DNA of 52,076 bases, taken from NCBI GenBank assembly GCA_002432545.1, contig DJFR01000040.1:20270-72345 (forward strand), read 5' to 3'. This document shows positions 1-16,599 of the stretch, one piece after another. The notes beneath the pieces are model-generated. The model ran no database searches. It saw only the letters and a program-made list of their open reading frames with translations, and was not told the origin of the DNA. Source of the DNA: Flammeovirgaceae bacterium UBA5867. Lineage in GTDB: Bacteria; Bacteroidota; Bacteroidia; Cytophagales; Cyclobacteriaceae. How positions within the stretch are numbered: the stretch's first letter is position 1; the number at the start of each line of letters is the position of its first letter. Both the position numbers and the translations under genes were made by a program.

Positions 1-570
1 CTCTCCAAACACTATGGCTGGCAGGCACTGCTTGAATCAGTAGAAGACAATCCATACCTGCGCGATTTTTATGGCGATATGCAACGCTGGTCGTTCCATG
101 TGCAAATGTATTTTTTGAACAGTCGCTTCAAGCAAATCAATAAAATTCGCGCAGCACAAAATAAAACTACCATTCAGGATCGCACCATCTATGAAGATGC
201 CTACATCTTTGCGACTAACCTGCATGACAGTGGTTTTATGTCAGAGCGTGACTTTCAAAGTTACCTGGATACATTTCATTCCATGATCAGCTTTGTGCAA
301 CCTCCGGATCTGCTTATTTACCTGCGGGCAGATATACCCAAACTGGTTCGACAGATAGAGAAGCGCGGTCGCGATTTCGAATATGCTATACGCATTGATT
401 ACCTGCGTAATCTCAACGAACATTACGAAAAGTGGATCGGCAGTTACAACCTTGGCAAGTTGCTGGTAATTGATGTTAACAATTTGGACTTTGTTGCCAG
501 CATTGATGACTTCTCATTCATTGTGAACAAGATTGATTTCGAGCTGAACAATCTTTTCAGTGATATATAG
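1..570 (+). CDS. Deoxynucleoside kinase family protein (5' end outside window)
   Basis: Frame 1 is open from base 1 (LSKHYGWQALLESVEDNPYLRDFYGDMQRW). Contains dNK-family segments IQDRTIYED, PDLLIYLRA and IEKRGRDFE. The P-loop would lie upstream of the window. Confidence 0.9.
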   Translation, partial: LSKHYGWQALLESVEDNPYLRDFYGDMQRWSFHVQMYFLNSRFKQINKIRAAQNKTTIQDRTIYEDAYIFATNLHDSGFMSERDFQSYLDTFHSMISFVQPPDLLIYLRADIPKLVRQIEKRGRDFEYAIRIDYLRNLNEHYEKWIGSYNLGKLLVIDVNNLDFVASIDDFSFIVNKIDFELNNLFSDI

Positions 571-598
571 TATACACCCGGTCTAAAACAACCTATAG

Positions 599-1351
599 TT
601 GATAACGCTTTTCTCTTTTCAATTCACTACGGCCGACTTACTCATCTTTTTGCTGGTTGCTGTATTTGTTGGCATGTCCAAAACAGGTGTACACGGCACC
701 GGTATGGTAGCCGTACCGTTGCTTGCTTCTGTTTTTGGTGGTCAGTTGTCCAGTGGCATTATGCTGCCGATGCTTTGCCTGGCCGATGTAATGGGCGTGT
801 GGTACTACCACAGACATGCATCGTGGCAACACCTTAAAAAACTTTTTCCGTGGGCAGTGATAGGCACTGTGCTCGGCACCATTGTAGGCGGCATGATCGA
901 TGACAATATTTTCAGAATGATCATGGCCGTGATTATTGTTGGCAGCGTCATTATTATGTTGTGGCTGGAGCGTGGCCACAAAGAAGATATACCAGACTAT
1001 AAATGGTTTGCAGGTTTAACAGGCACAGCCGGAGGTTTCACCTCAATGGTGGGAAACCTGGCCGGTTCTGTTATGGCAGTATATTTCCTGTCCATGCGTC
1101 TTCCTAAAAACTCATTTATAGGAACTACCGCCTGGTTCTTTATGGTGATGAACTGGTTTAAAGTTCCCTTTCATGTTTTTGCATGGCATACTATTTCGTG
1201 GAATACATTTCTACTTAACCTTTCCACGCTTCCACTCATTGCTGTGGGTGCACTTATCGGTATCGTAATCGTTAAAAATATACCGGAGAAATTATACCGC
1301 TGGTTTATTATTGGTATGACACTCGTTGCTGCCATTATGATGCTGGTATAG
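599..1351 (+). CDS. Sulfite exporter TauE/SafE family membrane protein
   Basis: 250 aa, about 8 hydrophobic segments, with the repeated family motifs GMSKTGVHGTG and GFTSMVGNLAG. Confidence 0.85.
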   Translation: MITLFSFQFTTADLLIFLLVAVFVGMSKTGVHGTGMVAVPLLASVFGGQLSSGIMLPMLCLADVMGVWYYHRHASWQHLKKLFPWAVIGTVLGTIVGGMIDDNIFRMIMAVIIVGSVIIMLWLERGHKEDIPDYKWFAGLTGTAGGFTSMVGNLAGSVMAVYFLSMRLPKNSFIGTTAWFFMVMNWFKVPFHVFAWHTISWNTFLLNLSTLPLIAVGALIGIVIVKNIPEKLYRWFIIGMTLVAAIMMLV

Positions 1352-1352
1352 A

Positions 1353-4300
1353 TCATTCGATCGCTACATTTTTCATTTCATCACGTCCATATATAACAGG
1401 GAAGTACATCCATTCAGCCTTCGCAGGGTTGAGGTGGTATTTACCTTTATACCTCGGTAGCAGGTCAATGGTATAATGATAAGTTCCGGCACGAAGGCGC
1501 TCGCAATAAATCCGGGTTTCGTGCAGATCATACTCACGATGTACTTCACCGCCCGACCAGTTTTGGTTTTTGCTGTTGTATGAGCAACCAGCCGGTATAG
1601 GTATATTGATCATAACATACTCGGCATCCTTCTTAACCTCCAGTGTTACTTCGAGCTTTACCGGTTTACCGGCTTTTAGTTTTTTACAATCATGCTGCCA
1701 CGCAGTATGGATAATAAAGTCTTTCTCTACTTTTTGCGGAGCCGCATTCCATTTTTCCTGATAGGCAGTAATATATACCGGGTCGTTTCCGGTTTTGTGA
1801 ATAGATATACTTTTGATGTTCGCATACTCTTTTTCAAAAGGGAATTTCGTTACCTTTTCCTGCTCATTAATAACAATCGCAGATTTCTGTTCATGCTGTT
1901 TTTGTTTTAGCAGATGAGGTAATAATACTTCAATGATGCGCGATGACAGGTATGTATTCGACCAGCTTCGTTTGCGCTTCTCCAGAAAGTAATTCTGCAA
2001 CTTCAACAAGTTGGGATCATTTGGGTTTCGATGCTCCATCATTTGAAAAACAACCAGTGTGTTATCAGTATCATTGTTCCAGAGTGAATATTTACTTTCG
2101 CCCCAGTACCAGTTTCCTTTCAATGTTTCGTGTCGTTGCTTGTCAATGGTGCTCCAGTTTATATCCATCTTCTGCAGTTGCTTGAGACGTTGTATTAAAA
2201 GCAGCTCGTGCTGCGAATACTTCTTACTGTTTTTATTTAATGAATCAAGAATACCTTGCATGGCGAGCGGCTCATGTAATTCGGAGAGAAATATCCATGA
2301 ATTCAGCTGCAACTCAATGTGCGTAGCGGTGGTTGTATTACCCATCAGGTAATTTTTTACTCCCTGCATATCGAAGCGAACCGTATAGCCGAGTTCGTCT
2401 GCCCATAATAGAGCTTTCGCAATATGGATTGTTATCCAAACACTTCCCGCCCCGTTGGCACCCCACCAGCCCCAACTTCCATCGGCATGCTGATTGGCAA
2501 TTAATCGCTTGATTGCCTTTTCAACCTGTTTGTCGTGATTGAATTCTTCTTTCTTATATAAGCAAATTGCTTTTTCAGCAAGCAACGCTTTCAGTTTAGA
2601 GGCGAGCTGCTCGTTGCAATCATACGGATATACCTTTAGCACATTGATCTCATCACGCAACACATCCGTCACATCGGCCTGTGCATATATAGTAATTTTA
2701 CCGGGCGAATCGAAAGTATAGGTTAAGGTTGTATCGCGCTTAAGCGGAGCAAAGAACCCGGAAGTTTCCAACGAGCCGATTGGCAACACCGGTATTTTGC
2801 GAAATTCACCGTCTTCATATTTCTTATAGGTAAGGCTATATTTCACAGCAAGACTATCGGTTGTAGCACTGCTAAGATCGATCGTATCAATCGCTGTATT
2901 TTTAATAGCCAGATCATCTTGCCGTATAGTCTTGCTGCCAACTTCTATGGAGCGTTTTATTTTCAGGCTATCACCACCATAATTTGTAATCTTCCCGATC
3001 GCCCATGCACTATCGCCTTGTATCAGGAAATTTGGTAATGCTAACTGCGCAGCCAATGGCTTGTAGGATTGAATTTTGCTCTGCGTCTGGCCGGTACGTT
3101 TTTTAGAAGCCATTCCCAGCACATATATATTCCACCCCGTTATATCATCCGGAAAGGTTACATTGAAAGATGCTTCTCCATTATTATCAGTATATAGTTT
3201 CGGTTGCCAGAATGCGTAGTCGCGGAAATTTTTTCGCAGCGATGATCCGGGGGCGGCATCTCCTGTTAACGCGAGCTGTGGTGTATCGGGTAATTTAGTT
3301 TTTAGCAGTTGAGACTTTGTCATGCCGGCTTTGGTAGAAATAAGGATCACACCATTGGCAGCACGCGCACCATATATAGCAACGGCCTCTTCAGATTTGA
3401 GTGCAACCATCGATGTAATTCTGTCGGGATCAATGTCGTCCATCGTTTTCGGTACGCCATCGATCACTACCAGTGGAGTATTGCTGTTTTCTATGGTTGA
3501 TACGCCTCGCAGTTGTATGCTAATTGAATCCGCTACGCCCGGTATACCTCTTCGCCTCGCAATAACACCTGCTACCTTTCCGCTAAGTATTGATGTAACG
3601 GAACTGGTTAAATTGCTTCTTTTAGATTCAGCATAACCCACCACAACTACCTCGCTCAGCATCTGTGTATCTTCTTCAAGATTTACATTTACTTGGTTAG
3701 CTGTGGAGGTATTAAGCTCCTGTGTTGTGTAGCCGATGAACGAAACAACCAGTATACCATTAGCCGGTACATATATACGATAGTTGCCATTTGTATCAGT
3801 AGCCGTACCGTTGGCTGTTCCTTTCAGAATTATGTTTATCCCTGGCAACCCTTCGCCAGAACTGTCGGTAACCCTGCCTGTTACCCAGCGACCTCCCGTA
3901 AACGATGCATTATAGGTTGACTCGCGATAGTATAGCGAACGCAGGTTTTGCATTTCGTGCATCCGGTTCTGATCTATATATACCGATTCGTTGGACCATT
4001 TTTTTATTCGCTCCATTACTTCAATGCTGAATGTATCGGCAGGTAATATTTTTTCATCAGCAAGTGTATAGAAAGTTCTGCCGTACGGTTTTATAGCAAC
4101 GGGTTCTGGTTTACTATACTGCCCGTCTTTATAGAGCATAATTACCTGGTATTTACCCGGCAGTAGAGGCGCAAAACTTGATTGGCGGCCTGGGAAAATA
4201 TAGTATTCATCCGGAAGATCGAGATTCAAAATGAAGGTTGCGAAATGTTGAGGCAAGCCACCCCGATTATCCTCAATAACGAGCGTACCTGTCTTTTTGG

Positions 4301-7169
4301 ACACAGGGTAATTGGTTGGATATTTTCGAATGGTATATTCTGTCTGTGGCTCTATTTCATTTTGCTTCCAGTATTCGAGAATACGTTTTTCAGTTTGTAC
4401 CTGATCTCGCAGTGATGGACTAAAGGAACGGTAATACAACGGGCTCCGGAAAAGATACCGTATATCATAACTTTCGCGGTCTACAAGTTTAGGCTCAATG
4501 GTTACGACTCTTCCGGGTTTAAAATCAAAACCAGTGCTGAACTGTGGCGTATGATACAATATACTGCCTGGCATAAAAGGACCGACAAGTTTTTGTGCAT
4601 CGTTTCCCCAGTTAAATGGAACCATGGCGTGAAAATTATTTCCTTGTTCTAGGTAGGCGAGTCGCTGCGTCATGTCACGATTCAGTAAGAGAAAATGTGG
4701 CCAGAGTTTGTTTATTTCATAGTCGCTAAACTTTGATTCTTCTTCGGTTACTTCAACATCCTTCGGCAGGTCATTGAGATCGGCACTCAGTATAAGCTTT
4801 TTGCCTTTCTCTGCGATCACATGATTGATCTGTATCAATTTATCACGAAGCCTTATGGTAAGATTGTGTCGGCCAGGTGAAGTGCGAAAGGAGTATGGCT
4901 CCAGGCTTTTTACTTCGTGGTAATACTTCAGTTCGTTGTCGATGTATATATAGTATATCGGCTGCAAGCGACCGTCACTTACGATAAACGGGGCTATTTG
5001 TGTAATGCTGTCTTCGCCTGTTGTATAATGTTTGTAGATATTTTTTTCAGGATAAAGAAAATGATAGTACTCAATGCTGTCCAAACCAAGCCTGCTCTTC
5101 CAGAAATGATAGTGCAAATCATTCTCGAATGATCGTGCTTGCTCTTTTTCGCTGAACTCGTTGAAGATCTTTCGGCTCTTGAATCTTTCGAAGTCCGGCA
5201 CCTCGGTGGATGATCCTTCTTTAAATTTCTTTGTAATGCTATAGGCTGTGAGGTCAGCGTTTTTTACCGGTTTGTCAAAGGCGTCCTTCACATTTATTTT
5301 TATAGCAACCTGTTGCCCGGGATATACCGCTGCCGGGTGATCGACTTCTATGTGCAGCGGTTTTTTGGCGAATGGCAGATCATAATTCTGATTACGTGAT
5401 TGGCCTGCCCAGATATACTGAATGGCGAAATAGTATCGTGCGTGGGGCGATGCTTTTCGTTTCGCTATATAATCATGGCTATAGCCCTGGTCGATGATGG
5501 TATTGTTTTTAAAAAGCTGATAGTGAAACGGCAGCTTACGCGGATTTTGTGTTATGATGAGCAGACTGTCTTTTGTATGTTCTGCACTAACCTGTAGGTC
5601 ATCGCCAATGGATTCAAGACTTATTTTCTTGACAAAAGTATCATGCTGCAACAACACATAACTCTGTATGTGCTGATCAATTTTTTGCCGGTACGGGAGC
5701 AATACTTCTCTCTGCTCAACAATTTCACCAGCTTTGTTTAGCGACTGTATTTTGAATTTACCAGTGCCTTCAGCAGTAAAGATTACTGAATCGTTCTTAA
5801 CCTTAATATCACCAGCTGGTGTTATATAGGTATATTTCAGGTTCAGCTCTTTAGTATGGCGCTCGTTATCAGTGTTGGTAAAGATTGCCGTTACATTATA
5901 GTCGAGTACGGCTTTCGGAAATATTGAATCAGGGAGTGATATACTGGTTTCACCAATCGGATCCAGCTTCAGGTTATGGCACCACAGCGTATCCCTTACA
6001 AAAATTGTCGGTCGTGTAAAATCATTGACACTTGCTGATTTTACAATAAGCTGAACGCGAACATCGTATAGCGGAAGATCATTGGCATCGGTACCTTTCA
6101 AAAATATAGTTGCCGACTTGTGTGATGGTGCATGGTTGCTGCGAATGGTAAATGTATTCTGCTGAAGTTCATATTGTTCATAACGAAAAGTAGCAGAAGG
6201 ATAGTCATGATCTCTTTTGTCCTGCAAGAGGATGTGGTAGCTCTTATCAAGTTTTAATTGCAAGCTATCGTGCAATACAAATTCATAGATATAGGCACCC
6301 GGTCTGTAAGGTGCAACTTCAGCCAGGGTCTTGGCTGGTACGTTACTACTATAATATTGATTAAGTCTAAAGGTGATTTTGTGCTTTGCCGGTTTACCTT
6401 TTGCGGTAACAATATAGGCCTTCAGTTTTACCGTGTCGCCCGGTTTATACTTTGGTTTGTTCAGAACAACGTAACCGCTATAGGGCTCTGTGTTAAAGAT
6501 TTTTCTTACTCTATAATATATACCTGGCGGCCGAATGCGCGTGTAATCGAACAAACTTCGTACAGATCGTGCCATGTAAAAGAATGGTGACGCAATATGA
6601 TTAAGGGGAAATGTTCCCAGTGCTCTTCGCGTTACACGTTTCGGCAAGTTGTTGTTGTACTTTCGCTGAATGTCGAAGAATGAGACATGGCCCTGGTATA
6701 AAACTTTGATCCAGCCTTGCCGGTTTGTTGTGGCGATGCGGTACGCATTGTTCTTTTTAGAGAACGGTATATTTCTGATGCCAATCCTTGGCCTAAGGGT
6801 GTTGACCAGTTTTCCGTTTACATCGTGAAATGATAACAGCAAGTCGCGGTGATTGTTAAGAATCACCATGTCCAGGTTATTTACCGATTCCATTTCTGCA
6901 TCCAGTGTTGCACCCCGGGATTTAATATAGAGGTAATGCCCAGTGGCAAGTTTCTTCCTGTAAACAGAATCCGATGGGTATAAATCTACCAATGTGTGAA
7001 AGAGACTATCGGAGAGAGGGCTATAACTTTTAGTATATAGCTTCTCAGCCTCTTTGTTGGTGATCTTGTAAATGAAAGTATAGTAACTCGATGTTCGCGA
7101 CTCAACCAGGTTTTGAGCGGAAGCATTTATACATACGAGTAACAGGCACGCGAGTAAAAATTTATTCAT
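1353..7169 (-). CDS. Alpha-2-macroglobulin-like thioester protein with inserted carboxypeptidase-regulatory-like and TonB plug domains
   Basis: Start placed at ATG 7169 (signal peptide MNKFLLACLLLVCINASAQ). MG2 motif NKPKYKPGDTVKL; A2M motif RKNFRDYAFWQP...FPDDITGW; thioester motif YPYDCNEQ (CNEQ at 2607-2618); TED-like QHADGSWGWW; C-terminal YVMINIPIPAG. SusC-like VTGRVTD...SFIGY...EVVVVGY and plug PLVVIDG...AIYGARAANGVILISTK. Confidence 0.85.
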   Translation of the reverse strand: MNKFLLACLLLVCINASAQNLVESRTSSYYTFIYKITNKEAEKLYTKSYSPLSDSLFHTLVDLYPSDSVYRKKLATGHYLYIKSRGATLDAEMESVNNLDMVILNNHRDLLLSFHDVNGKLVNTLRPRIGIRNIPFSKKNNAYRIATTNRQGWIKVLYQGHVSFFDIQRKYNNNLPKRVTRRALGTFPLNHIASPFFYMARSVRSLFDYTRIRPPGIYYRVRKIFNTEPYSGYVVLNKPKYKPGDTVKLKAYIVTAKGKPAKHKITFRLNQYYSSNVPAKTLAEVAPYRPGAYIYEFVLHDSLQLKLDKSYHILLQDKRDHDYPSATFRYEQYELQQNTFTIRSNHAPSHKSATIFLKGTDANDLPLYDVRVQLIVKSASVNDFTRPTIFVRDTLWCHNLKLDPIGETSISLPDSIFPKAVLDYNVTAIFTNTDNERHTKELNLKYTYITPAGDIKVKNDSVIFTAEGTGKFKIQSLNKAGEIVEQREVLLPYRQKIDQHIQSYVLLQHDTFVKKISLESIGDDLQVSAEHTKDSLLIITQNPRKLPFHYQLFKNNTIIDQGYSHDYIAKRKASPHARYYFAIQYIWAGQSRNQNYDLPFAKKPLHIEVDHPAAVYPGQQVAIKINVKDAFDKPVKNADLTAYSITKKFKEGSSTEVPDFERFKSRKIFNEFSEKEQARSFENDLHYHFWKSRLGLDSIEYYHFLYPEKNIYKHYTTGEDSITQIAPFIVSDGRLQPIYYIYIDNELKYYHEVKSLEPYSFRTSPGRHNLTIRLRDKLIQINHVIAEKGKKLILSADLNDLPKDVEVTEEESKFSDYEINKLWPHFLLLNRDMTQRLAYLEQGNNFHAMVPFNWGNDAQKLVGPFMPGSILYHTPQFSTGFDFKPGRVVTIEPKLVDRESYDIRYLFRSPLYYRSFSPSLRDQVQTEKRILEYWKQNEIEPQTEYTIRKYPTNYPVSKKTGTLVIEDNRGGLPQHFATFILNLDLPDEYYIFPGRQSSFAPLLPGKYQVIMLYKDGQYSKPEPVAIKPYGRTFYTLADEKILPADTFSIEVMERIKKWSNESVYIDQNRMHEMQNLRSLYYRESTYNASFTGGRWVTGRVTDSSGEGLPGINIILKGTANGTATDTNGNYRIYVPANGILVVSFIGYTTQELNTSTANQVNVNLEEDTQMLSEVVVVGYAESKRSNLTSSVTSILSGKVAGVIARRRGIPGVADSISIQLRGVSTIENSNTPLVVIDGVPKTMDDIDPDRITSMVALKSEEAVAIYGARAANGVILISTKAGMTKSQLLKTKLPDTPQLALTGDAAPGSSLRKNFRDYAFWQPKLYTDNNGEASFNVTFPDDITGWNIYVLGMASKKRTGQTQSKIQSYKPLAAQLALPNFLIQGDSAWAIGKITNYGGDSLKIKRSIEVGSKTIRQDDLAIKNTAIDTIDLSSATTDSLAVKYSLTYKKYEDGEFRKIPVLPIGSLETSGFFAPLKRDTTLTYTFDSPGKITIYAQADVTDVLRDEINVLKVYPYDCNEQLASKLKALLAEKAICLYKKEEFNHDKQVEKAIKRLIANQHADGSWGWWGANGAGSVWITIHIAKALLWADELGYTVRFDMQGVKNYLMGNTTTATHIELQLNSWIFLSELHEPLAMQGILDSLNKNSKKYSQHELLLIQRLKQLQKMDINWSTIDKQRHETLKGNWYWGESKYSLWNNDTDNTLVVFQMMEHRNPNDPNLLKLQNYFLEKRKRSWSNTYLSSRIIEVLLPHLLKQKQHEQKSAIVINEQEKVTKFPFEKEYANIKSISIHKTGNDPVYITAYQEKWNAAPQKVEKDFIIHTAWQHDCKKLKAGKPVKLEVTLEVKKDAEYVMINIPIPAGCSYNSKNQNWSGGEVHREYDLHETRIYCERLRAGTYHYTIDLLPRYKGKYHLNPAKAEWMYFPVIYGRDEMKNVAIE

Positions 7170-8082
7170 ATAGGTTCTGGTAAGAAGCAGCTCCTTGCAG
7201 CCCGCCTGTATGCAGGGCAAGTATCGTGGAGCCTCGCTTAAAAAAGCCTTTCTTTACCTCTTCCAACACCGCCCACATCAACTTGCCCGTATATACAGGG
7301 TCGAGCGGAAGGTTATGCTGCTGGTACATCTCACGTATAAAATTTTTCAGCACATCCGGTACCTTGGCATAGCCTCCGTGATGATAAGATGTAAGCACCT
7401 GCCATTTTCCATAAACCGGGGAAGAAATTTTTTTTTCTGCTGCAGAAGTTTTTAACAGGTTGGTTATTTCCTGTGTCAGAAAATCTCCTTTCAACACACT
7501 TATACCTACAACTTCTCTTTTGCCTGCAAACCCTTCAAGTATACCAGCCATTGTTCCGCCAGTACCACTTGCCAGGCAGAGGTAATCGAAGTCAAGGTTT
7601 AATAATGTCTCGGCAAATTCTGAACAACCTTTTAGTGCAAGCGAATTTGTGCCGCCTTCGGGTATACTATAAAAATCACCGAACGCACTATGAAGGTGCC
7701 GAATATAGTCTGCTTCATTTTTTTTTCTATAGTCTTCACGTGAAACATAGTGCAGCTCCATGCCATGTTCAGTTGCAAAACGCAACGTAGGGTTTAAGGG
7801 CAAAACTTCTTCACCGCGTATTATACCTATACTTTTAAAATTGCATTCCTCTGCAGCTGCCGCTACAGCATAGATGTGATTGGAGTATGCTCCGCCAAAT
7901 GTGAGCAAAGTTTTCTTGTTAAGTCTTCGTGCTTCCTCCAGGTTGTATTTCAACTTCCACCATTTGTTGCCGGAGATAAACGGATGATTGAGATCTTCAC
8001 GTTTAACCAACAATCGAACGCCCGCTTTTTCCAAAACAGCATGATGAAATTCCTGAACCGGAGTAGACTCGTAGTGTAGCAA
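7162..8082 (-). CDS. ACC deaminase/D-cysteine desulfhydrase family PLP enzyme
   Basis: TTG start; motifs KREDL, SGNKWWKL (PLP lysine), TFGGAYSNH, PEGG, LDPVYTGK, HTGG. Confidence 0.9.
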   Translation of the reverse strand: MLHYESTPVQEFHHAVLEKAGVRLLVKREDLNHPFISGNKWWKLKYNLEEARRLNKKTLLTFGGAYSNHIYAVAAAAEECNFKSIGIIRGEEVLPLNPTLRFATEHGMELHYVSREDYRKKNEADYIRHLHSAFGDFYSIPEGGTNSLALKGCSEFAETLLNLDFDYLCLASGTGGTMAGILEGFAGKREVVGISVLKGDFLTQEITNLLKTSAAEKKISSPVYGKWQVLTSYHHGGYAKVPDVLKNFIREMYQQHNLPLDPVYTGKLMWAVLEEVKKGFFKRGSTILALHTGGLQGAASYQNLYE

Positions 8083-8132
8083 AATTGAAGTTTTTGAGGG
8101 CTCAAAATACTTTAAAATTCAAATTTTAAATA

Positions 8133-8169
8133 ACTAATAATTTTAGTGAATACATCTAAAATTATTAGT
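8133..8169. promoter_or_regulatory. Two tandem CTAA-N5-TTAG palindromic boxes (probable Bacteroidota SOS operator)
   Basis: CTAA-TAATT-TTAG at 8134-8146 and CTAA-AATTA-TTAG at 8156-8168. Together they form a perfect 14-bp inverted repeat with a 9-bp spacer, upstream of a SplB-like radical SAM gene. Confidence 0.65.
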
Positions 8170-8201
8170 AACTATGTGTAGCGTTTAGTGAAGGAGTATT
8201 T

Positions 8202-9254
8202 ATGGAAGAGGAATATTTTAAGGGCAGAGGGGCGCAAATAAAAACAGCGAATAAATTTCTAAAGGCACAGTATGTTACTGACCATGTTGAAGGACTTGAT
8301 GAACCGTTGTTTTCAGCACCCACCACACAAATTTTTTATGAGACACCCAAGAAGATTGTTAATAAAGTAACGAGCCCGGATCTTCGGATGATGTACTCCA
8401 CCAATCCGTACCAGGGTTGCGAGCATGGATGTATATATTGTTATGCACGCAACTCGCACGAGTACTGGGGCTTTAATGCCGGCCTTGATTTTGAGAGCAA
8501 GATCATTGTGAAAAAAGACGCACCGAAGCTGTTGGAGAAATTTATACTTCACCCGGATTGGCAGCCGGTGCCTATATCGGTTTCCGGTAATACGGATTGT
8601 TATCAACCGCTTGAGCGTAAATTTGAGATCACGCGAAACATGCTGAAAGTGTTTGCAAGATATAGACATCCCGTTGGTATGATTACCAAAAACAGTCTGG
8701 TGTTGCGCGATATAGATTTACTCAAAGATCTGGCGCAGGATAATTTAGTGCATGTATATATCTCCATCACCACGCTGGATGAAGACTTGCGCAGGGCGAT
8801 GGAACCTCGCACAGCCAGCGCAGTAAAGCGACTAAAAACTGTAGAGGAATTATCGAAAGCCGGAGTGCCGGTGGGCATTATGAACGCACCAATTATACCC
8901 GGACTCAATCATCACGAAATTCCACAAATATTAAAAGCCGCGAGTGATCATGGGGCATTGGGAGCAGGCATGACCGTTGTTCGTTTGAATGGCTCTATCG
9001 GAAAAATTTTTGAAGACTGGCTGCGAAAGAATTTCCCGGATCGCTTTGATAAGGTATGGCACCAGATCTGCTCGCTGCACGGTGGCAACGTAAACGACTC
9101 CGAGTTTGGAAGACGCATGAGCGGTGAAGGTAATTTTGCAGAAATTATACATCAGCTCTTCACGATATCCAAAAAGAAATATTTTGGTAACAAAACATTG
9201 CCGGCTATCGATCTCACCAAATTCAGGAAGGGCGGAAACCTCAGCCTGTTTTAG
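8202..9254 (+). CDS. Radical SAM protein, PA0069/Rv2578c (SplB-like) family
   Basis: NPYQGCEHGCIYCYAR (CxxxCxxC), GLDFESKIIVK, NTDCYQP, MEPRTAS; preceded by AAGGAG. Confidence 0.9.
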   Translation: MEEEYFKGRGAQIKTANKFLKAQYVTDHVEGLDEPLFSAPTTQIFYETPKKIVNKVTSPDLRMMYSTNPYQGCEHGCIYCYARNSHEYWGFNAGLDFESKIIVKKDAPKLLEKFILHPDWQPVPISVSGNTDCYQPLERKFEITRNMLKVFARYRHPVGMITKNSLVLRDIDLLKDLAQDNLVHVYISITTLDEDLRRAMEPRTASAVKRLKTVEELSKAGVPVGIMNAPIIPGLNHHEIPQILKAASDHGALGAGMTVVRLNGSIGKIFEDWLRKNFPDRFDKVWHQICSLHGGNVNDSEFGRRMSGEGNFAEIIHQLFTISKKKYFGNKTLPAIDLTKFRKGGNLSLF

Positions 9255-9262
9255 CAAAACGA

Positions 9263-9292
9263 AAAAGACACGAGTTTTTGCTCGTGTCTTTT
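9263..9292. terminator. Probable bidirectional intrinsic terminator
   Basis: AAAAGACACGAG-TTTTTG-CTCGTGTCTTTT, a 12-bp perfect stem between convergent genes. Confidence 0.8.
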
Positions 9293-9320
9293 ATATACTG
9301 ACCGTATAAATATAGTATAT

Positions 9321-10679
9321 CTATTTCCTGGCAAAGTGCTTGTAGAAAGCAACAATGGTTTCTACACCTGCCAGAAAATTGTGCACACCGTAATGTTCAT
9401 TAGGAGAGTGGATGGCATCGCTATCCAAACCAAAGCCCATCAACACAGTATCAAGACCAAGTTCTTTTTTGAACAATGCAACGATAGGTATACTGCCTCC
9501 GTCACGGGTCGGTATTGGTGTTTTGCCGAATACTTCTTCGAAAGCTTTGCTTGCAGCTTTATAGGCATCCGAATCGGTTCGTGTAACAGCGGGCTCGCCA
9601 CCATGATGCGCCATTACTTTTACTTTTACATACGAAGGTGCTATAGATTGAAAGTGTTTGGTAAAGAGCTCCGTGATTTCGGAACTTACCTGGTTCGGAA
9701 CAAGTCGCATGGAAATTTTAGCATGCGCTTTGGATGGCAACACGGTTTTGGCACCTTCACCGGTATAGCCGCCCCACATACCATTTACATCCAGTGTGGG
9801 CCGCACACCGGTGCGCTCTAATGTAGTATATCCTTTCTCACCTTTTATTTCATCGATGCCTAGTTCTTTTTTATACTCGTTCAAATCGAAGGGTGCTTTG
9901 TTTAACGCCTCGCGCTCAGCAGCGGTGAGTTCGGCAACTTTATCGTAGAAACCAGGCACGGTAATTCTGCCGTTCTCATCGTGTAATGAATTAATCATAC
10001 TGCACAACACGTTGATCGGATTTGCTACAGCACCACCATATACACCAGAGTGCAGGTCGCGGTTCGGCCCTGTTACTTCTACTTCCATATAGCTTAGTCC
10101 GCGAAGACCTGTTGTAATGGAAGGATGCTCCAGCGAGATCAAAGCTGTATCAGAAATAAGAATGATGTCGGCTTTCAGCTTCGCTTTATTTTCTTTAACA
10201 AATGTTCCGAGGTTGTCTGACCCAACTTCTTCTTCACCTTCAACCATAAACTTCACGTTGCATGGCAGCAGGTTTAGTTTCATCATGGTTTCAAACGCCT
10301 TCACGTGCATATATACCTGGCCTTTGTCATCGCATGAACCACGCGCATATATCTTGTCATCTTTCACAACCGGTTCGAACGGAGGAGAGTCCCACAGATT
10401 TATAGGGTCAGCAGGTTGCACATCGTAGTGACCGTATACTAAAATAGTAGGTAATGACGCATTGATAATTTTTTCTGCATAAACGATCGGGTGACCTTTT
10501 GTTTCGCATATCTCAACGGTATCAACTCCGGCAGCGGCCAGTTTTTCTTTCAGGTATTCTGCTGCTTTACGAACATCACCTTTATTACGACTGTCTGCAC
10601 TGACAGACGGAATGCGAAGCCAATCAAAAAGTTCAGACAGGAAACGATCCTTGTTAGATGAAATGTATTCTTTAATCAT
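9321..10679 (-). CDS. M20 family dipeptidase (CNDP/ArgE-DapE-like)
   Basis: Metal ligand motifs GHYDVQP, RGSCDDKGQ, EGEEEVGS, HSPNE. Start placed at ATG 10679 (MIKEY). Confidence 0.9.
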   Translation of the reverse strand: MIKEYISSNKDRFLSELFDWLRIPSVSADSRNKGDVRKAAEYLKEKLAAAGVDTVEICETKGHPIVYAEKIINASLPTILVYGHYDVQPADPINLWDSPPFEPVVKDDKIYARGSCDDKGQVYMHVKAFETMMKLNLLPCNVKFMVEGEEEVGSDNLGTFVKENKAKLKADIILISDTALISLEHPSITTGLRGLSYMEVEVTGPNRDLHSGVYGGAVANPINVLCSMINSLHDENGRITVPGFYDKVAELTAAEREALNKAPFDLNEYKKELGIDEIKGEKGYTTLERTGVRPTLDVNGMWGGYTGEGAKTVLPSKAHAKISMRLVPNQVSSEITELFTKHFQSIAPSYVKVKVMAHHGGEPAVTRTDSDAYKAASKAFEEVFGKTPIPTRDGGSIPIVALFKKELGLDTVLMGFGLDSDAIHSPNEHYGVHNFLAGVETIVAFYKHFARK

Positions 10680-10739
10680 TGTTCCGGTTATTGAGTTTAA
10701 CGGCAAATTACAGTATCGATCCGATTGTTAAAGCATCGC

Positions 10740-11690
10740 TCATAACTTTATCTTCATGATGAAGGTTTGTTCCAGACTTGCCGTGTCTTTTATCCTTCCT
10801 TTGTTGCCTATGATCTGCAACAACTGGCTGTTGGCTATAAAGTAAAACTCATCACCAACAATAACACCGGTGGTAGGTGAATCAAATTTAGCATCGCCCT
10901 CACACTGAAAATCTATTCTCTCGGCACGATCACTACTCGCGTTTAATGTTACTTTTTGAATGGACTCCGGAAAGAACGTGTTCTGCACTCCGATCAGCGT
11001 ATTGTTGTATTGATAAAGACCATCATAGCCCATTACCATATAGCGATCGTTGGGAATAGCTGAGATATGTTTTGTAGCTATATCTACCCGCACAACACCT
11101 TGATCACCTCCTGTACTTACGATCAGAAATTTTTCATCAGGTGTTGCTGTAATACCGTTGGCGAAAGCAACGCTGCCATGCTTGGTAAATTCTTCCAGTG
11201 TTTTACTGTCCTTGCGAATTACCCATAGCATACCGGCATCTGTGTCGGTAACAAATACATCGCCTGCTTTGGTAATATATAGGTCGTTAAACAAATGGCG
11301 GTTGTCGTCTACCAGCTTGAAGCGTTTCACCATTTTTTTGGTGTGAAGATCATATACATGCACGTTGGAAATTTTTCGTACAGTATCATGTTCGGGTGTA
11401 TTGTTGCATGCCCACAATAAACCGCGTGCATCCACCTTCATGCCAAGCACCTGCTCAATCTCGTCCGTTCCCGATGCAATAAGGTCGCTCGTCTTACCAT
11501 CGGGTGTAATCTTTACTATTTTTCTTTTATATATACTGCCCAGGTAAAAAGCTTTTTCTGTAGGGTCGTATGCGATGCCTTCGGGTATAAGATCTCGTTC
11601 TTCCAGTATAAAGGCTGTTTCTGCTTTCTTCTGTGCGAAAACAAAATGACAGACGAGTAACATCGATACCAATAGTGTGTGTTTATTCAT
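10740..11690 (-). CDS. Secreted SMP-30/gluconolactonase-like beta-propeller protein
   Basis: Signal peptide MNKHTLLVSMLLVCHFVFAQ; propeller motifs PEGIAYD, FNDLYIT, ANGITATPD. Confidence 0.7.
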   Translation of the reverse strand: MNKHTLLVSMLLVCHFVFAQKKAETAFILEERDLIPEGIAYDPTEKAFYLGSIYKRKIVKITPDGKTSDLIASGTDEIEQVLGMKVDARGLLWACNNTPEHDTVRKISNVHVYDLHTKKMVKRFKLVDDNRHLFNDLYITKAGDVFVTDTDAGMLWVIRKDSKTLEEFTKHGSVAFANGITATPDEKFLIVSTGGDQGVVRVDIATKHISAIPNDRYMVMGYDGLYQYNNTLIGVQNTFFPESIQKVTLNASSDRAERIDFQCEGDAKFDSPTTGVIVGDEFYFIANSQLLQIIGNKGRIKDTASLEQTFIMKIKL

Positions 11691-11774
11691 AACAAGTTTA
11701 AGGGGATAGCCTTTTACAAAATGACGTTTACGAAATACAGCAGATATATATACTAACATGAAATATACTTCACA

Positions 11775-13145
11775 TCAGAACAATACAACTTCTGCGCCCC
11801 GCGGATTTGTAAGATACGAGTTAATAAGATTTTGAACGGTAGGTGTTTCGGTGCTGGAGCGCACATATGTGCGTGCCGATTCGAAATCAGCAATCGATAT
11901 ATCTTTACCAACATAGCCAAAGCCACAATACGTGCCTTTGTCAACCAGCACGAGCGATTGCTCATCAATGTTTCTTCCCTTACCAATAATAGCTGCTGAA
12001 CTGCCTGTACTTTTAAAAGTATCAATCGCTTTATGTATCCGCTTGTTATAGCGCTTAACGGTTTCAACACCTTCGCAGGCTCCATGGCATTCTCCGGTCT
12101 GATAATTAAAACATAATCCTTTGGCAACCTGGAGTCCGCATAACTTCGGACAAAGATCAAACTCGCGCACTTTCTCCCAGAGAAAATTCCACGCGTCACC
12201 TTTCGTACTGAAACGGACCAGCGGGTGCGAACCCTTCGTCACTATATTTACCGAGAACCGCAGGTAGCCATTGCGATCTTCATAATCAAAAATTCCCCAC
12301 TCTTCAACCCTATACTTTTGCGCCTGGTTATACTTCGGCCATAGTCTTCGTATTTCCTGCGATTCCAGAATTAATGCGATCAATTCATTACCGGTAAGTT
12401 CATGACTGATATGATGAATTTCATTTCTGATCTTGGAGCGACTCCACTCGCGTGCTTCACCCGTAAAATGACCTGCAATTCTTTTTTTAATGTTGATGGC
12501 TTTACCAACATAAATAACCTGACCGCGTGCGTTATGAAAATAATATACTCCCGGCAGTGAAGGCAGGCGATCGAATTCTTCTTTTGGAAGATTGGGTGGA
12601 AGAATTGTTTCTCCGGAATTTTTCTTCAGCGCCTTTGCTATATAATTATCGCGGTCGCGTCTTAATAACTGATCGAAGATTTTAACCGTAGCATGTGCAT
12701 CGCCACTCGCGCGGTGCCGGTTGGTAATTTGTATACCTAAACTTTCAGACAATGTTCCAAGACTATACGAACGCAACCCCGGAATAATTTTACGACTCAA
12801 CCGTACCGTGCATAATTTTTTTGCCTGCCAGTTAACACCTGTCAATTCGAACTCACGCTTTAAAAATGAATAATCGAAGTGAGCGTTGTGTGCTACAAAG
12901 ACTTTTCCATCGAGGAAACCGAAAATTTCTTCGGCAACTTCTTCAAAGGTCGGGGCATTGAGCACCATCTCGGTTGAGATTCCGGTAAGACCTGTAATGT
13001 AGTGTGGTATGTCTCTTCCGGGATTTATTAAGGTATGGTAGGTTTCCGTGATCTGGATTCCATCATGATGAAAAATAGCAATTTCTGTAATGCGATGGTT
13101 TGCCGCATAGCCTCCGGTAGTTTCAATGTCAACAATCGCGTACAT
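11775..13145 (-). CDS. DEDDh 3'-5' exonuclease (Pol III epsilon-like) fused to a GIY-YIG UvrC/Cho-like endonuclease
   Basis: AIVDIETTGG, VAHNAHFD, HRASGDA (ExoI-III), followed by GVYYF...IYVGKAINIKKRI. Confidence 0.9.
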   Translation of the reverse strand: MYAIVDIETTGGYAANHRITEIAIFHHDGIQITETYHTLINPGRDIPHYITGLTGISTEMVLNAPTFEEVAEEIFGFLDGKVFVAHNAHFDYSFLKREFELTGVNWQAKKLCTVRLSRKIIPGLRSYSLGTLSESLGIQITNRHRASGDAHATVKIFDQLLRRDRDNYIAKALKKNSGETILPPNLPKEEFDRLPSLPGVYYFHNARGQVIYVGKAINIKKRIAGHFTGEAREWSRSKIRNEIHHISHELTGNELIALILESQEIRRLWPKYNQAQKYRVEEWGIFDYEDRNGYLRFSVNIVTKGSHPLVRFSTKGDAWNFLWEKVREFDLCPKLCGLQVAKGLCFNYQTGECHGACEGVETVKRYNKRIHKAIDTFKSTGSSAAIIGKGRNIDEQSLVLVDKGTYCGFGYVGKDISIADFESARTYVRSSTETPTVQNLINSYLTNPRGAEVVLF

Positions 13146-13213
13146 GGTCGAAATTTAAAGTTTGACTTGTTAAGGTAAAAGCAGAAATTCAATCAAATTT
13201 TAATTCTTGTAAA

Positions 13214-13561
13214 ATGAACGGAATAGTCCGATTTCTCTTGTCTGGTGTCGCAGTATTATTAACGGCATACCTCATGAAAGGTGTACACGTAGAGCATTAT
13301 GGTTACGCATTGCTGGTGGCAGCGGTGCTGGCCCTGGCAAACATGATTGTAAAACCGGTGCTCATTATTTTCACCATTCCCATCACCATTTTCACACTCG
13401 GTTTATTTTTATTGGTGATCAACGCGCTGATCATTATGCTGGTGGATTACCTAGTGCCCGGTTTTCGTGTCGATGGTTTCTGGTGGGCACTTTTGTTCAG
13501 TGTTGTCCTGTCTATTTTCAACAGCCTGTTCACCGACATCTCGAAAGAAAAAGAGCGCTAG
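13214..13561 (+). CDS. YvlD/DUF360 '4-TMS phage holin' family membrane protein
   Basis: 115 aa, four hydrophobic segments, family motif PITIFTLGLFLLVINA. Confidence 0.85.
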   Translation: MNGIVRFLLSGVAVLLTAYLMKGVHVEHYGYALLVAAVLALANMIVKPVLIIFTIPITIFTLGLFLLVINALIIMLVDYLVPGFRVDGFWWALLFSVVLSIFNSLFTDISKEKER

Positions 13562-13599
13562 AAAAATTTCCATAACCACCGACCGAAAACCTCTACCTC

Positions 13600-16599
13600 A
13601 TGAACGTTACTATACGCACCCTTGTGGCTGTTGCATGGCTGTTGTTTGCAGCATGCTCAACAAAACAATCCAATCCCGAAGATCATACCCCTGAAGCTTC
13701 GCTGGCGGATCTGAAAGTATATACCGGACTCGAAGTGACATTGTTTGCTTCCGAGCCTATGTTCAGCAATCCGACCAACATGGATATAGATGCACGTGGA
13801 AGAGTGTGGGTTTGTGAAGCATACAACTATCGCAATCAATACAATCCTAAAAATCCGGTGAAGAAAGAAGGCGATCGCATCATGATCCTGGAAGATACCG
13901 ATGGCGATGGCAAGGCCGACAACAGTAAAGTATTTTATCAGGGCACAGATATAAATGCAGCGCTGGGTATATGTGTGCTGGGCAATAAAGTAATTGTATC
14001 GTGCAGCCCCAACGTTTTTGTTTTTACCGATGAAGATGGTGATGATGTGCCAGAGAAAAAAGAAATTCTCTTCCAGGGCATCAAAGGTGTTCAGCACGAT
14101 CATGCTATACATTCATTTCTGTTTGGGCCCGATGGTAAACTATATTTCACCATGGGTAACGAAGGTGTATTGCTCGTAGATGCAAAGGGCGATACCGTAC
14201 GCGATATCCATGGAAATAAAATTGTTGCTAACGGTAAACCCTATCGCGATGGCATGGCGTTGCGTTGCAACCCCGATGGTACCGGTGTGGAAGTGATTGG
14301 CAATAACTTTCGGAATAATTATGAGTTAACCGTTGATCCCTTCGGCACGGTGTGGCAATCGGATAACGATGATGATGGAAACAAAGCCACGCGCATCAAC
14401 TATGTTATGGAGCATGGTAACTTCGGGTATAAAGACGAGGTGACCGGAGCAAGCTGGTATAAAAGGCGCACGAACCTGGAAAAGGAAATTCCTTTTCGTC
14501 ACTGGCATTTGAATGACCCGGGTGTAGTGCCCAACCTGTTGCAGACCGGTGCAGGTTCGCCTACTGGTATAATGATGTATGAAGGTACTATGCTTCCGCA
14601 GATTTTTCAGGGGCAGCTCATTCACGCAGAGCCGGGTCATAATGTTATACGTTCCTATACCATAACGAATGATGGTGCCGGCTATAAAGCAGAGATAGTA
14701 AATATACTCGAAGGTCAGAAAGATCAATGGTTTCGTCCGGCAGATGTTACGGTGGCTCCGGATGGTTCGTTGTTCGTTGCTGATTGGTACGACCCCGGAG
14801 TTGGTGGCCACCAGGTGGGCGATGTAGATCGTGGCAGAATATACCGTATAGCGAAATCAAAAACAGGATATACTATATCTCCACCCGACCTCACCACTGC
14901 CAATGGTGCTGTACTAGCTTTAGTAAGTGGTAACGCGGCAACACGATATATAGGATGGAACGCTCTTGCCACGTTTGGCGAACGGGCAGAAAGTGCTTTG
15001 CTAAAACTATGGACTTCCGGCAACGTAAGACATCGCGCACAAGCACTCTGGCTGCTGACGAAACTTCAGGGTAAAGCAGATATATACCTGCAGCAGGCTG
15101 TTGCTGATAAAGAAAGTAACATTCGTATTGAAGCGATTCGTATCGCTAAACTTCTCAAAAAAGATATACTTCCCATTGCAGCTAAGCTTGCGAGCGACTC
15201 TTCGGCCCAGGTTAGAAGAGAGGTTGCTCTGGCGCTTCGCGGTAACGCAACAACAGAAGCTGCCGCTATATGGACACAACTGGCGTTGCAGTATAATGGC
15301 CGTGATCGCTGGTATCTGGAAGCCCTGGGAATTGGTGCTGCCGAAACGGAAGACCTATATTTCAACGCCTGGAAACAGAAGGTTGGCAACAACTGGAATA
15401 CACCCGCAAACAGCGATATAGTTTGGCGAAGTCGCAGTAAATATGCTATGCCGTTGCTAGCGGAACTAATCAAGTCTTCTGATGAACAGGAAATGTTACG
15501 ATACTATCGCGCATTCGATTTTTATAAAGATCCACTCAAGCAAACGGTGCTCGCGCAACTTGTACAGCAAGCACAAGGCGATAAAGTATTGTATGCGCTA
15601 AAGCACATGGATGCCTCCAAACTAAAAATGACGCCACCGGTTATGACAGCACTTAACAAAGTGCTGGATCAATATAGAGGTGAGCTTCAGTACGTGGAGC
15701 TTGTGTCGTTATTCAAACTGCAGAATCATGCTGATGAACTGCTGCAAATAGGTATACATTATCCGGATAGTGCAAAAGGTAAGGAAGCAATAAAAGCGTT
15801 GCTCGATTGGGATCGTACCGATCTGATCGATAAAGTTCTCAGTTCGCCCAACCGCGATGAAGGCCAGGCCATGATCAAAGCGTTGTGGCCCTATATGTAC
15901 GATAAGAAAACGATAGCCATTATGGAAGGTGTAATGATGGACACGTCCAAAGAGATGGAACTGCGCAAGCTTGCTGTAAAAACTTTTGGCGGCCCGTGGG
16001 AATCAGAAGATCGTTTACTCTTGCTGGCAAAAGAGAAGAAGATACCCATAACATTGCAGGCAGCGGCCGCGGGAGTTTTTCAAACTGCGTGGCGTGCTAC
16101 GTTGCGAGACGAGGCCGGCAAATATCTGAAGCTGCCAGGCAGTAAAGAAGGTACTTCGCTACCAACGGTATCGGTACTGGTCGATAAACAGGGTAATGTT
16201 GAGCAAGGCAAAAAAGTATTCAAGACTATATGCAGCAGTTGCCATCGCCTTAACAACGAAGGTGTAGATTTTGGACCAGACCTCAGTGAGATCGGTGATA
16301 AACTTCCGAAAGAAGCAATCTATACGGCTATACTTTATCCCGACCAGGGGATAAGTTTTGGTTACGAAGGCTGGCGTATAAAACTTCATGACGGCTCTTC
16401 TGCATTCGGGCGTATCATTTCAGAAACGGAAGATAAGATCGATGTACAGTATATGAACAATCAGCAAACAATTCTGAAAGAAAATATACTCTCGCGCACA
16501 AAGCTTGAAAGCTCGCTGATGCCATCGAACCTGCAAGCGACTATGACGGAGCAAGAGCTGGTAGACCTGGTGGAATACCTGAATACACTTCGGAAGTAG
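13600..16599 (+). CDS. PVC-type membrane-bound dehydrogenase-like lipoprotein (beta-propeller, HEAT repeats, C-terminal cytochrome c)
   Basis: Lipobox LLFAAC; propeller motifs FASEPMFSNPTNMDIDARGRVWV, GNNFRNNYE, FRPADVTVAPDG; HEAT repeats; heme motif CSSCH (16231-16245) followed by GPDLSEIG. Confidence 0.85.
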   Translation: MNVTIRTLVAVAWLLFAACSTKQSNPEDHTPEASLADLKVYTGLEVTLFASEPMFSNPTNMDIDARGRVWVCEAYNYRNQYNPKNPVKKEGDRIMILEDTDGDGKADNSKVFYQGTDINAALGICVLGNKVIVSCSPNVFVFTDEDGDDVPEKKEILFQGIKGVQHDHAIHSFLFGPDGKLYFTMGNEGVLLVDAKGDTVRDIHGNKIVANGKPYRDGMALRCNPDGTGVEVIGNNFRNNYELTVDPFGTVWQSDNDDDGNKATRINYVMEHGNFGYKDEVTGASWYKRRTNLEKEIPFRHWHLNDPGVVPNLLQTGAGSPTGIMMYEGTMLPQIFQGQLIHAEPGHNVIRSYTITNDGAGYKAEIVNILEGQKDQWFRPADVTVAPDGSLFVADWYDPGVGGHQVGDVDRGRIYRIAKSKTGYTISPPDLTTANGAVLALVSGNAATRYIGWNALATFGERAESALLKLWTSGNVRHRAQALWLLTKLQGKADIYLQQAVADKESNIRIEAIRIAKLLKKDILPIAAKLASDSSAQVRREVALALRGNATTEAAAIWTQLALQYNGRDRWYLEALGIGAAETEDLYFNAWKQKVGNNWNTPANSDIVWRSRSKYAMPLLAELIKSSDEQEMLRYYRAFDFYKDPLKQTVLAQLVQQAQGDKVLYALKHMDASKLKMTPPVMTALNKVLDQYRGELQYVELVSLFKLQNHADELLQIGIHYPDSAKGKEAIKALLDWDRTDLIDKVLSSPNRDEGQAMIKALWPYMYDKKTIAIMEGVMMDTSKEMELRKLAVKTFGGPWESEDRLLLLAKEKKIPITLQAAAAGVFQTAWRATLRDEAGKYLKLPGSKEGTSLPTVSVLVDKQGNVEQGKKVFKTICSSCHRLNNEGVDFGPDLSEIGDKLPKEAIYTAILYPDQGISFGYEGWRIKLHDGSSAFGRIISETEDKIDVQYMNNQQTILKENILSRTKLESSLMPSNLQATMTEQELVDLVEYLNTLRK

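Follow-up and report, generated by a model that had tools for sequence, protein, structure and literature searches.

Bacterial alpha-2-macroglobulins (A2Ms) of the type represented by ECAM and SaA2M (PDB 5a42, 4ziq, 4rtd, and 4u48) are periplasmic proteins built from a ring of macroglobulin (MG) domains, a CUB domain, a thioester domain (TED), and a C-terminal MG domain. E. coli-type A2Ms are usually encoded with pbpC, and in E. coli YfhM a lipid anchor does the work of tethering. The bait of ECAM contains a disordered stretch at residues 923 to 942, and the C-terminal MG domain of ECAM carries motifs, ESMY among them, that hold the TED locked in the native protein (PMC4498604). The SusC/RagA transporters (TIGR04056; Bt1763, BT2264, and RagA) combine an N-terminal extension (NTE), a TonB box, and a plug with a 22-strand barrel and an adjacent gene for a SusD-type lid. 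The TonB box of Bt1763 is 82-DEVVVTG-88, and both this box and the NTE are required for growth on levan (PMC7782687). The window analyzed here, a stretch of 52,076 nucleotides from Flammeovirgaceae bacterium UBA5867 (assembly GCA_002432545.1, contig DJFR01000040.1, positions 20,270 to 72,345 of the forward strand), holds a gene, termed A2M-SusC below, that joins these two well-studied envelope systems, thioester traps and TonB-dependent transport, in one polypeptide, and the combination was conserved in at least four orders of Bacteroidota.

The gene lies in a single unbroken open frame at window positions 1353 to 7220 on the minus strand. The ATG at 7169 was taken as the likely start because it fits both the signal peptide and the homologues, giving a product of 1938 amino acids. 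Pfam placed CarbopepD_reg_2 at residues 1096 to 1176 (E = 1e-18), A2M (PF00207) at 1319 to 1404 (E = 1e-17), and bMG10 at 1826 to 1924 (E = 3e-14), in addition to a weak MG2 match. Positions 3 to 209 of the 981 in the NCBIfam SusC/RagA model TIGR04056 aligned to residues 1096 to 1285 (E = 7e-62), with the SusC signature on residues 1251 to 1280; the score of 210 fell under the cutoff of 368 because the barrel is missing. In a PDB sequence search, residues 1094 to 1286 aligned to the NTE, TonB box, and plug of the SusC homologues 8aa4 and 5t3r and of RagA (6sli), while residues 1508 to 1601 aligned to the TED of YfhM/ECAM and of SaA2M. An earlier sequence-only reading of this DNA had described an A2M carrying the N-terminal module of a SusC with no barrel behind it, and this was confirmed. 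Its positions for the thioester motif, the NTE, and the plug agreed with those in Table 1, and DLTAYS and RKNF were found from 5255 and 3236, as it had indicated.

The assignment to the A2M superfamily was supported by motifs, profiles, and structure prediction. The sequence KVYPYDCNEQ at residues 1509 to 1521 supplies the flanking tyrosines of type I A2Ms, and the ExMY motif of that type was likewise present, although the counterpart of RDDR was unclear. Of 120 sequences scanned, 119 retained CxEQ, and ExMY was found in 94 of the 105 homologues of full length. In hhalign comparisons with a profile of 27 canonical Bacteroidota A2Ms plus ECAM, residues 1328 to 1937 aligned to ECAM 978 to 1650 with a probability of 98.3; KVYPYDCNEQLAS fell on ECAM KAYPYGCLEQTAS, the thioester motif YPY[DE]CNEQ on ECAM YPYGCLEQ, and EWMY on ESMY. 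An AlphaFold2 (AF2) model of residues 740 to 1938, with a predicted local distance difference test (pLDDT) value of 80, gave SaA2M and ECAM as its best Foldseek matches (E about 1e-34). The top matches were 4u48, 5a42, and 4ziq (E = 1e-31 to 1e-34), followed by eukaryotic A2M, CD109, TEP1, and C3/C5, and the MG ring, CUB, TED, and C-terminal MG scaffold of the ECAM/SaA2M type was recognized. In the N-terminal region, which is free of gaps across 49 homologues, positions 228 to 372 of the family profile aligned to TEP1 89 to 236. On these motifs and alignments, the product is probably a soluble periplasmic member of the A2M superfamily, competent to form a thioester, on a deep branch specific to Bacteroidota.

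The scaffold had previously been called a standard bacterial one, a description that did not hold. Only the C-terminal 610 residues aligned confidently to ECAM, and in a comparison with the canonical paralogue from this genome, BLASTP aligned only the TED significantly, at 29% identity. An inner-membrane lipoprotein anchor as in ECAM and SaA2M was lacking: the signal peptide is of the signal peptidase I (SPI) type, as had been proposed, and a lipobox was absent from 104 of 105 full-length homologues, in which the consensus around the cleavage site is ...AQ/DLxxSRxSSYYT. Neither was pbpC found next to the gene, at this locus or at 80 related loci, in agreement with the sequence-only reading. 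Another departure from the ECAM pattern among periplasmic bacterial homologues of A2M is seen in the macroglobulins of the Pseudomonas MagD type (type II). They are without a thioester and are encoded in the mag operon, whereas A2M-SusC keeps CNEQ and stands alone.

The SusC front end was about 45% identical to SusC/RagA transporters over the NTE, TonB box, and plug. A plug hidden Markov model (HMM) was built from 15 SusCs of this genome, spanning 132 positions from the TonB box to TTKRGKxG, and matched over positions 1 to 131; the corresponding NTE HMM matched over positions 2 to 79 of 79. The first half of the plug (to about residue 1228) was variable and disordered in the AF2 models, while the second half was conserved. 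No beta-barrel follows the plug: the SusC barrel HMM gave no match on the open reading frame (ORF), and the 22 strands of a SusC barrel are accordingly lacking. The module further differs from SusC/RagA in being internal to another protein and in having no SusD-type neighbor, the flanking genes encoding TauE and a pyridoxal phosphate (PLP)-dependent enzyme.

To locate the module within the A2M fold, a profile of 73 family members was aligned to eukaryotic relatives. Positions 1308 to 1413 aligned to human A2M 724 to 829, starting at the end of the bait region (about 690 to 728), and positions 1311 to 1409 aligned to C5 761 to 856, starting ten residues after the C5a/C5b cut at 751/752. The ECAM bait ends and begins 36 to 55 residues ahead of ECAM 978, which by linear offset corresponds to about residues 1273 to 1315 here. 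The alignments to A2M, C5, and ECAM therefore indicate that A2M sequence resumes exactly past the bait/anaphylatoxin position, which is occupied by the SusC module and a linker. The linker varies in length and sequence among distant members and, counted along the chain, coincides with the baits of ECAM and human A2M. The earlier placement of the insert at the bait position was thus upheld.

A second AF2 model (residues 580 to 1480, pLDDT 81) showed three strands within residues 606 to 646, four strands within 1318 to 1368, and then a seven-strand MG domain. The first three strands (606 to 610, 620 to 628, and 639 to 646 by DSSP) had pLDDT values above 90. When residues 580 to 739 were omitted, the segment 1310 to 1375 had a pLDDT of about 60 and no strands; when they were included, its values rose to 78 to 94. 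The first half of this domain was placed from the models because sequence placement gave weak matches, among them one by BLASTP (E = 0.12) between the first half and the last part of A2M_BRD of the canonical paralogue. That one MG domain is split into three plus four strands around an insert of 665 residues (647 to 1311) is well supported by the models but not proven. In complement C3/C4/C5, a folded domain, the anaphylatoxin, is set into MG6 at the site of activation, and MG6 of C3 has a similar split. On the strand pattern, the pLDDT behavior, and the profile alignment to C5 and A2M, the protein would resemble complement C3/C4/C5 in holding a folded module within a split MG domain, just upstream of a segment like alpha'NT. 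It differs in that its module is much larger than the anaphylatoxin and has no relation to it, that no convertase-type partner is known, and that the protein is bacterial and periplasmic.

Compared with the short, largely disordered MG8 bait of ECAM and SaA2M, the insertion is mostly folded, with disorder limited to spacers and the terminal linker. Values of pLDDT fell below 50 at residues 1168 to 1228, covering the TonB box and first plug half, and at 1293 to 1319, covering the linker, and were 75 to 82 for 1229 to 1294. The insert had been described as one of some 660 residues ending in a carboxypeptidase-regulatory-like domain and a TonB-receptor plug; both were found in it, but about 440 residues are not SusC-like and are predicted to form three beta-sandwiches and a helical hairpin. 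These family-specific domains (residues 687 to 1084) had pLDDT values mostly above 90 and were conserved without gaps in the family. Pfam gave nothing on them, and Foldseek searches of both models returned only whole-chain A2M/TEP matches, with no domain-level identity. The loop ahead of them was 72% identical to the closest orthologue, compared with 81 to 94% for most other segments.

Table 1. Features of the A2M-SusC gene and its product, from the N to the C terminus
Feature	Window position	Strand	Residues	Remarks
Signal peptide	7113..7169	(-)	1-19	MNKFLLACLLLVCINASAQ; SPI type; predicted mature N terminus around Q19/N20
N-terminal region, conserved N-domain and MG-type beta domains	5355..7112	(-)	20-605	Weak MG2 at 232-277
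First half of predicted split MG domain	5232..5354	(-)	606-646	3 strands; VYPGQQVAIKINVKD...DLTAYS
Insert loop, variable, partly disordered	5112..5231	(-)	647-686	pLDDT 48-75, below 50 at 673-682
Family-specific insert domains	3918..5111	(-)	687-1084	Three predicted beta-sandwiches (about 711-810, 827-900, 961-1035) and helical hairpin (1046-1084)
SusC-type NTE, CarboxypepD_reg-like	3666..3890	(-)	1094-1168	Aligns to 6ytc and 9hfj
TonB box EVVVVGYA	3630..3653	(-)	1173-1180	SEVVVVGYA opposite DEVVVVGYG of 8aa4
Plug core	3300..3629	(-)	1181-1290	Second half conserved, bears SusC signature ...AIYGARAANGVILISTKAG
Linker TKLPDTPQLALTGDAAPGSSL	3237..3299	(-)	1291-1311	Disordered (pLDDT below 50), just ahead of RKNFRDYAFW
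Second half of predicted split MG domain and next MG domain (PF00207)	2760..3236	(-)	1312-1470	4 strands at 1318-1368, then 7-strand MG domain
CUB and TED	1770..2759	(-)	1471-1800	PDB match, AF2 helical TED, Foldseek, hhalign
Thioester motif CNEQ	2607..2618	(-)	C1518-Q1521	Preceded by Y-P-Y-D
C-terminal MG domain (bMG10) with ExMY lock motif (EWMY)	1356..1769	(-)	1801-1938	

The interpretation that we favor, tentatively and at slightly less than an even chance, is that A2M-SusC is a thioester trap in which a SusC module able to dock on TonB serves as the trigger region. The conservation of the module bears directly on this. Columns conserved in at least 75% of 82 SusC modules were compared with 50 A2M modules, and nearly every one was about equally conserved in the latter. 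The A2M modules keep the NTE glycines, GRxAGV, DG, YG.RAANGV, and the IRG arginine (0.98), which we take to be the arginine conserved in the plugs of TonB-dependent transporters (TBDTs). In the TonB box, E (1.00), V at three positions (0.94), and G (0.90) equaled or exceeded the SusC values. The exceptions were D-I-E-S and LKDA, at window positions 3384 to 3428 (residues 1248 to 1262), whose frequencies of 0.78 to 0.84 in SusCs dropped to between 0.02 and 0.34 in A2M modules, and TT, which was replaced by ST. Like the linker, the spacers that follow the TonB box and precede IRG differ among members in length and sequence, as is usual for bait regions; no such freedom is seen in the plug motifs.

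It is distinctly unlikely that the module is a recruited domain that merely serves the folding or spacing of the trigger region, with no link to TonB or transporters and with structural constraints within the A2M accounting for its conservation. Such a role would fit the lack of linked Ton or barrel genes and the moderate confidence of AF2 for the NTE and second plug half within the protein. However, the degree of conservation of the TonB box matches that in functional SusCs even across members that are only 34 to 40% identical. The box is a short unstructured strand for which no folding role is known, and the AF2 models show it as disordered rather than packed.

In a tree of the modules, those from A2Ms formed two large groups apart from SusCs. 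The module of one family member (P0076) nested within a SusC clade together with a SusC of the present genome (C276), with support of 99 in the Shimodaira-Hasegawa-like approximate likelihood ratio test (SH-aLRT); because of this position, replacement by a SusC module appears to have occurred at least once. Against an orthologue of 84% identity, the pairwise ratio of nonsynonymous to synonymous substitution rates (dN/dS) was 0.08 overall. The most diverged segment, residues 1169 to 1228, was 59% identical with a ratio of 0.24, compared with 72 to 100% identity elsewhere (81 to 100% without the loop at 651 to 686). No segment had a higher ratio, and nothing pointed to positive selection. These data also bear on a different explanation, put forward in the sequence-only reading, in which the SusC front end is a decoy that mimics real SusCs, so that proteases, imported toxins, or phage proteins attacking the periplasmic parts of TBDTs would cut or bind it and be trapped covalently. 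The resemblance to SusC at almost all conserved positions favors it, and the placement of P0076 would fit occasional recopying from real SusCs. The gene was also the fastest evolving of its syntenic block in a comparison with Ohtaekwangia koreensis, at 65% identity compared with 72 to 93% for its neighbors; against the nearest metagenome-assembled genome (MAG), the values were 84% for A2M-SusC and 88 to 97% for the rest of the block. However, most A2M modules fall into two clades of their own and do not track the SusCs of their genome, the low dN/dS values give no indication of positive selection, and D-I-E-S and LKDA have been lost. In addition, periplasmic cleavage of SusC plugs or TonB boxes is not known to us for any agent. 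A decoy is therefore considered unlikely.

The conserved plug core raises the further question of a barrel partner. Under this alternative, the macroglobulin plug would insert in trans into a plug-less SusC-type barrel, linking an outer membrane channel to a thioester protein. The plug-core motifs are indeed conserved, including the IRG arginine, and in TBDTs the conserved plug arginine forms salt bridges to barrel glutamates (PMC11658791). This genome (90.8% complete) was scanned with TIGR04056, and all its ORFs of at least 150 amino acids were scanned for SusC and non-SusC barrels with our own HMMs and phmmer. No plug-less SusC-type barrel was found in this genome or at the 80 related loci. 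Three plug-less candidates from TIGR04056 were explained by runs of N, by frame breaks, or by a plug that was divergent but present. Some barrels (on contigs C14, C23, C265, and C183) had been separated from an NTE and plug lying immediately upstream by a run of N or a break in the frame; others (C13, C77, and C90) had a divergent plug of their own, and the remaining barrel ORFs were cut by a contig end. Within 8 kb of the gene, a SusC barrel occurred at only 3 of the 80 related loci, in each case with its own NTE and plug, and there was no conserved neighbor. With every apparent plug-less barrel of this genome being either an artifact or equipped with a plug, a split transporter is very improbable, and the docking on a barrel partner suggested by the sequence-only reading is left without a candidate in this genome or subfamily. 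As a separate observation, N runs and frame breaks in draft genomes readily mimic plug-less barrels by splitting a SusC into one ORF with the NTE and plug and another with the barrel.

For the favored interpretation, a TonB-dockable trap, studies of A2M and of TBDT plugs suggest how the parts could work together. The A2M bait sequence can be replaced wholesale, and a break in the chain, not elongation alone, lets alpha'NT retract from the central channel (PMC9352918). On its own, the FepA plug has the properties of an unfolded protein, and roughly the first 50 residues that follow the TonB box can be extracted by TonB (PMC11658791). In the native state, the thioester of A2M-SusC would be shielded by the lock between the TED and the C-terminal MG domain, and the barrel-less plug at the bait position would expose protease-sensitive stretches. 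A protease might then cut a disordered stretch in or just after the plug (about 1181 to 1216 or 1291 to 1311). The cut would free the conserved segment PGSSLRKNFRDYAFW, the putative counterpart of the alpha'NT "plug-in-channel" segment, so that the cage would collapse and the exposed thioester could bond covalently to the protease. Binding of TonB to the module with the NTE and TonB box would place this anchor-less trap on the Ton complex, which is tethered to the inner membrane, and the two elements may have been kept because TonB binds there. This genome encodes five TonB_C proteins.

A purely mechanical trigger, in which TonB would pull the TonB box, unfold the plug, and thereby switch the conformation and expose the thioester without proteolysis, is likewise very improbable. 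It would fit the capacity of TonB to unfold the residues past the TonB box, since the same stretch is disordered and variable here. However, discontinuity rather than elongation triggers A2M, and elongation of the human bait without a break fails to trigger the switch. A pull from the N-terminal side would also be expected to hold the alpha'NT-like segment in the channel, and a soluble protein offers no fixed point to pull against.

Several points weigh against the trap with a TonB-dockable trigger. Thioester reactivity, cleavage sites, TonB binding, and localization are all inferred, TonB binding from motif conservation only. The split MG topology is deduced from secondary structure, pLDDT behavior, and alignments, and the N-terminal boundary of the insert lacks significant sequence support (the BLASTP match mentioned above, and local hhalign matches with probabilities below 4%). 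No TonB or ExbBD gene is linked to A2M-SusC. Finally, a mere bait or tether would not need plug-core motifs so strongly conserved; this could point to another partner or to a role tied to the fold.

A more far-reaching proposal makes the macroglobulin an active component of the Ton system and more than a protease inhibitor: TonB would engage its TonB box, and the proton motive force, or docking of the plug in an outer membrane barrel encoded elsewhere, would couple an envelope-spanning machine to the covalent thioester trap. This is considered improbable; if true, it would describe a "complement-like" device of bacteria that TonB actuates or puts in position. If TonB does bind, A2M-SusC would be, to our knowledge, the first TonB-box client besides outer membrane barrels and imported toxins and would show a new way in which a periplasmic immune-like protein can be anchored or armed. 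The family also offers a natural experiment on the size of insert tolerated at the A2M bait/anaphylatoxin position and on the behavior of a plug without its barrel.

Databases already contain the architecture in abundance, with automatic annotations. It is shared by more than 100 full-length proteins of 1900 to 2050 amino acids, under pipeline names such as "carboxypeptidase-like regulatory domain-containing protein," "alpha-2-macroglobulin family protein," and "TonB-dependent SusC/RagA receptor," and their alignment is almost free of gaps from end to end. As anticipated by the sequence-only reading, no study of a fusion between an A2M and a plug was found in the papers searched. The junction between plug and A2M (residues 1230 to 1420) matched representatives of at least 268 clusters at 50% identity with E values of 1e-30 or better, nearly all as a single stretch at an approximately constant position. 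Relatives were present in the genomes of at least 557 species. The best 80 all cover residues 740 to 1938 and come from Cytophagales (Ohtaekwangia, Chryseolinea, Cyclobacteriaceae, Flammeovirgaceae, Marivirga, and Pontibacter), Sphingobacteriales (Mucilaginibacter, Pedobacter, and Solitalea), Chitinophagales, and Bacteroidales/Marinilabiliales. In a survey of the phylum, the family-specific part of the insert (query residues 641 to 1100) was detected at an E value of 1e-10 or better in 4 of 401 genomes and in none of 12 from the same family, numbers that are not used as a prevalence figure because sensitivity is low at 26 to 30% identity. The distribution of the A2M-SusC family is probably patchy.

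A canonical thioester A2M of 1864 amino acids is encoded in the same genome (contig C46:15001-35000, positions 10527 to 16121, minus strand), with the domains bMG3, MG2, bMG5, bMG6, A2M_BRD, A2M, TED, and bMG10. It is followed by a DUF5117/DUF4953 Met-zincin (7668 to 10142, minus strand) and then by pbpC (5239 to 7556, minus strand). Among 61 genomes sampled from the class, 38 had this canonical type. Since the canonical A2M-PbpC locus coexists with it, the fusion represents an additional, distinct type of A2M and not a replacement. At the canonical locus, pbpC consists of two overlapping ORFs (Transgly; TP plus BiPBP_C), and the secreted-type zincin between A2M and PbpC is foreign to the E. 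coli arrangement.

Upstream of A2M-SusC, the gene for the PLP-dependent enzyme (7162 to 8082) ends within the A2M-SusC start region, overlapping it by 8 nucleotides including the start codon (7162 to 7169); the pair is therefore probably cotranscribed. This adjacency was retained at only 12 of the 80 related loci. When ORFs were clustered across these loci, no conserved neighbor emerged, the top cluster reaching 15 of 80 and reflecting lineage-specific synteny. The other neighbors are housekeeping genes, encoding a deoxynucleoside kinase, TauE, a radical SAM protein, an M20 peptidase, an SGL protein, and an RNase T/GIY-YIG protein. The order deoxynucleoside kinase, TauE, A2M, PLP-dependent enzyme, radical SAM, M20, SGL, and RNase T is shared with O. 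koreensis over window positions 79 to 13145. Elsewhere in the window, positions 13600 to 16599 on the plus strand encode a protein of 999 amino acids that combines a beta-propeller resembling DUF7133/glucose-sorbosone dehydrogenase with HEAT repeats and a C-terminal cytochrome c domain.

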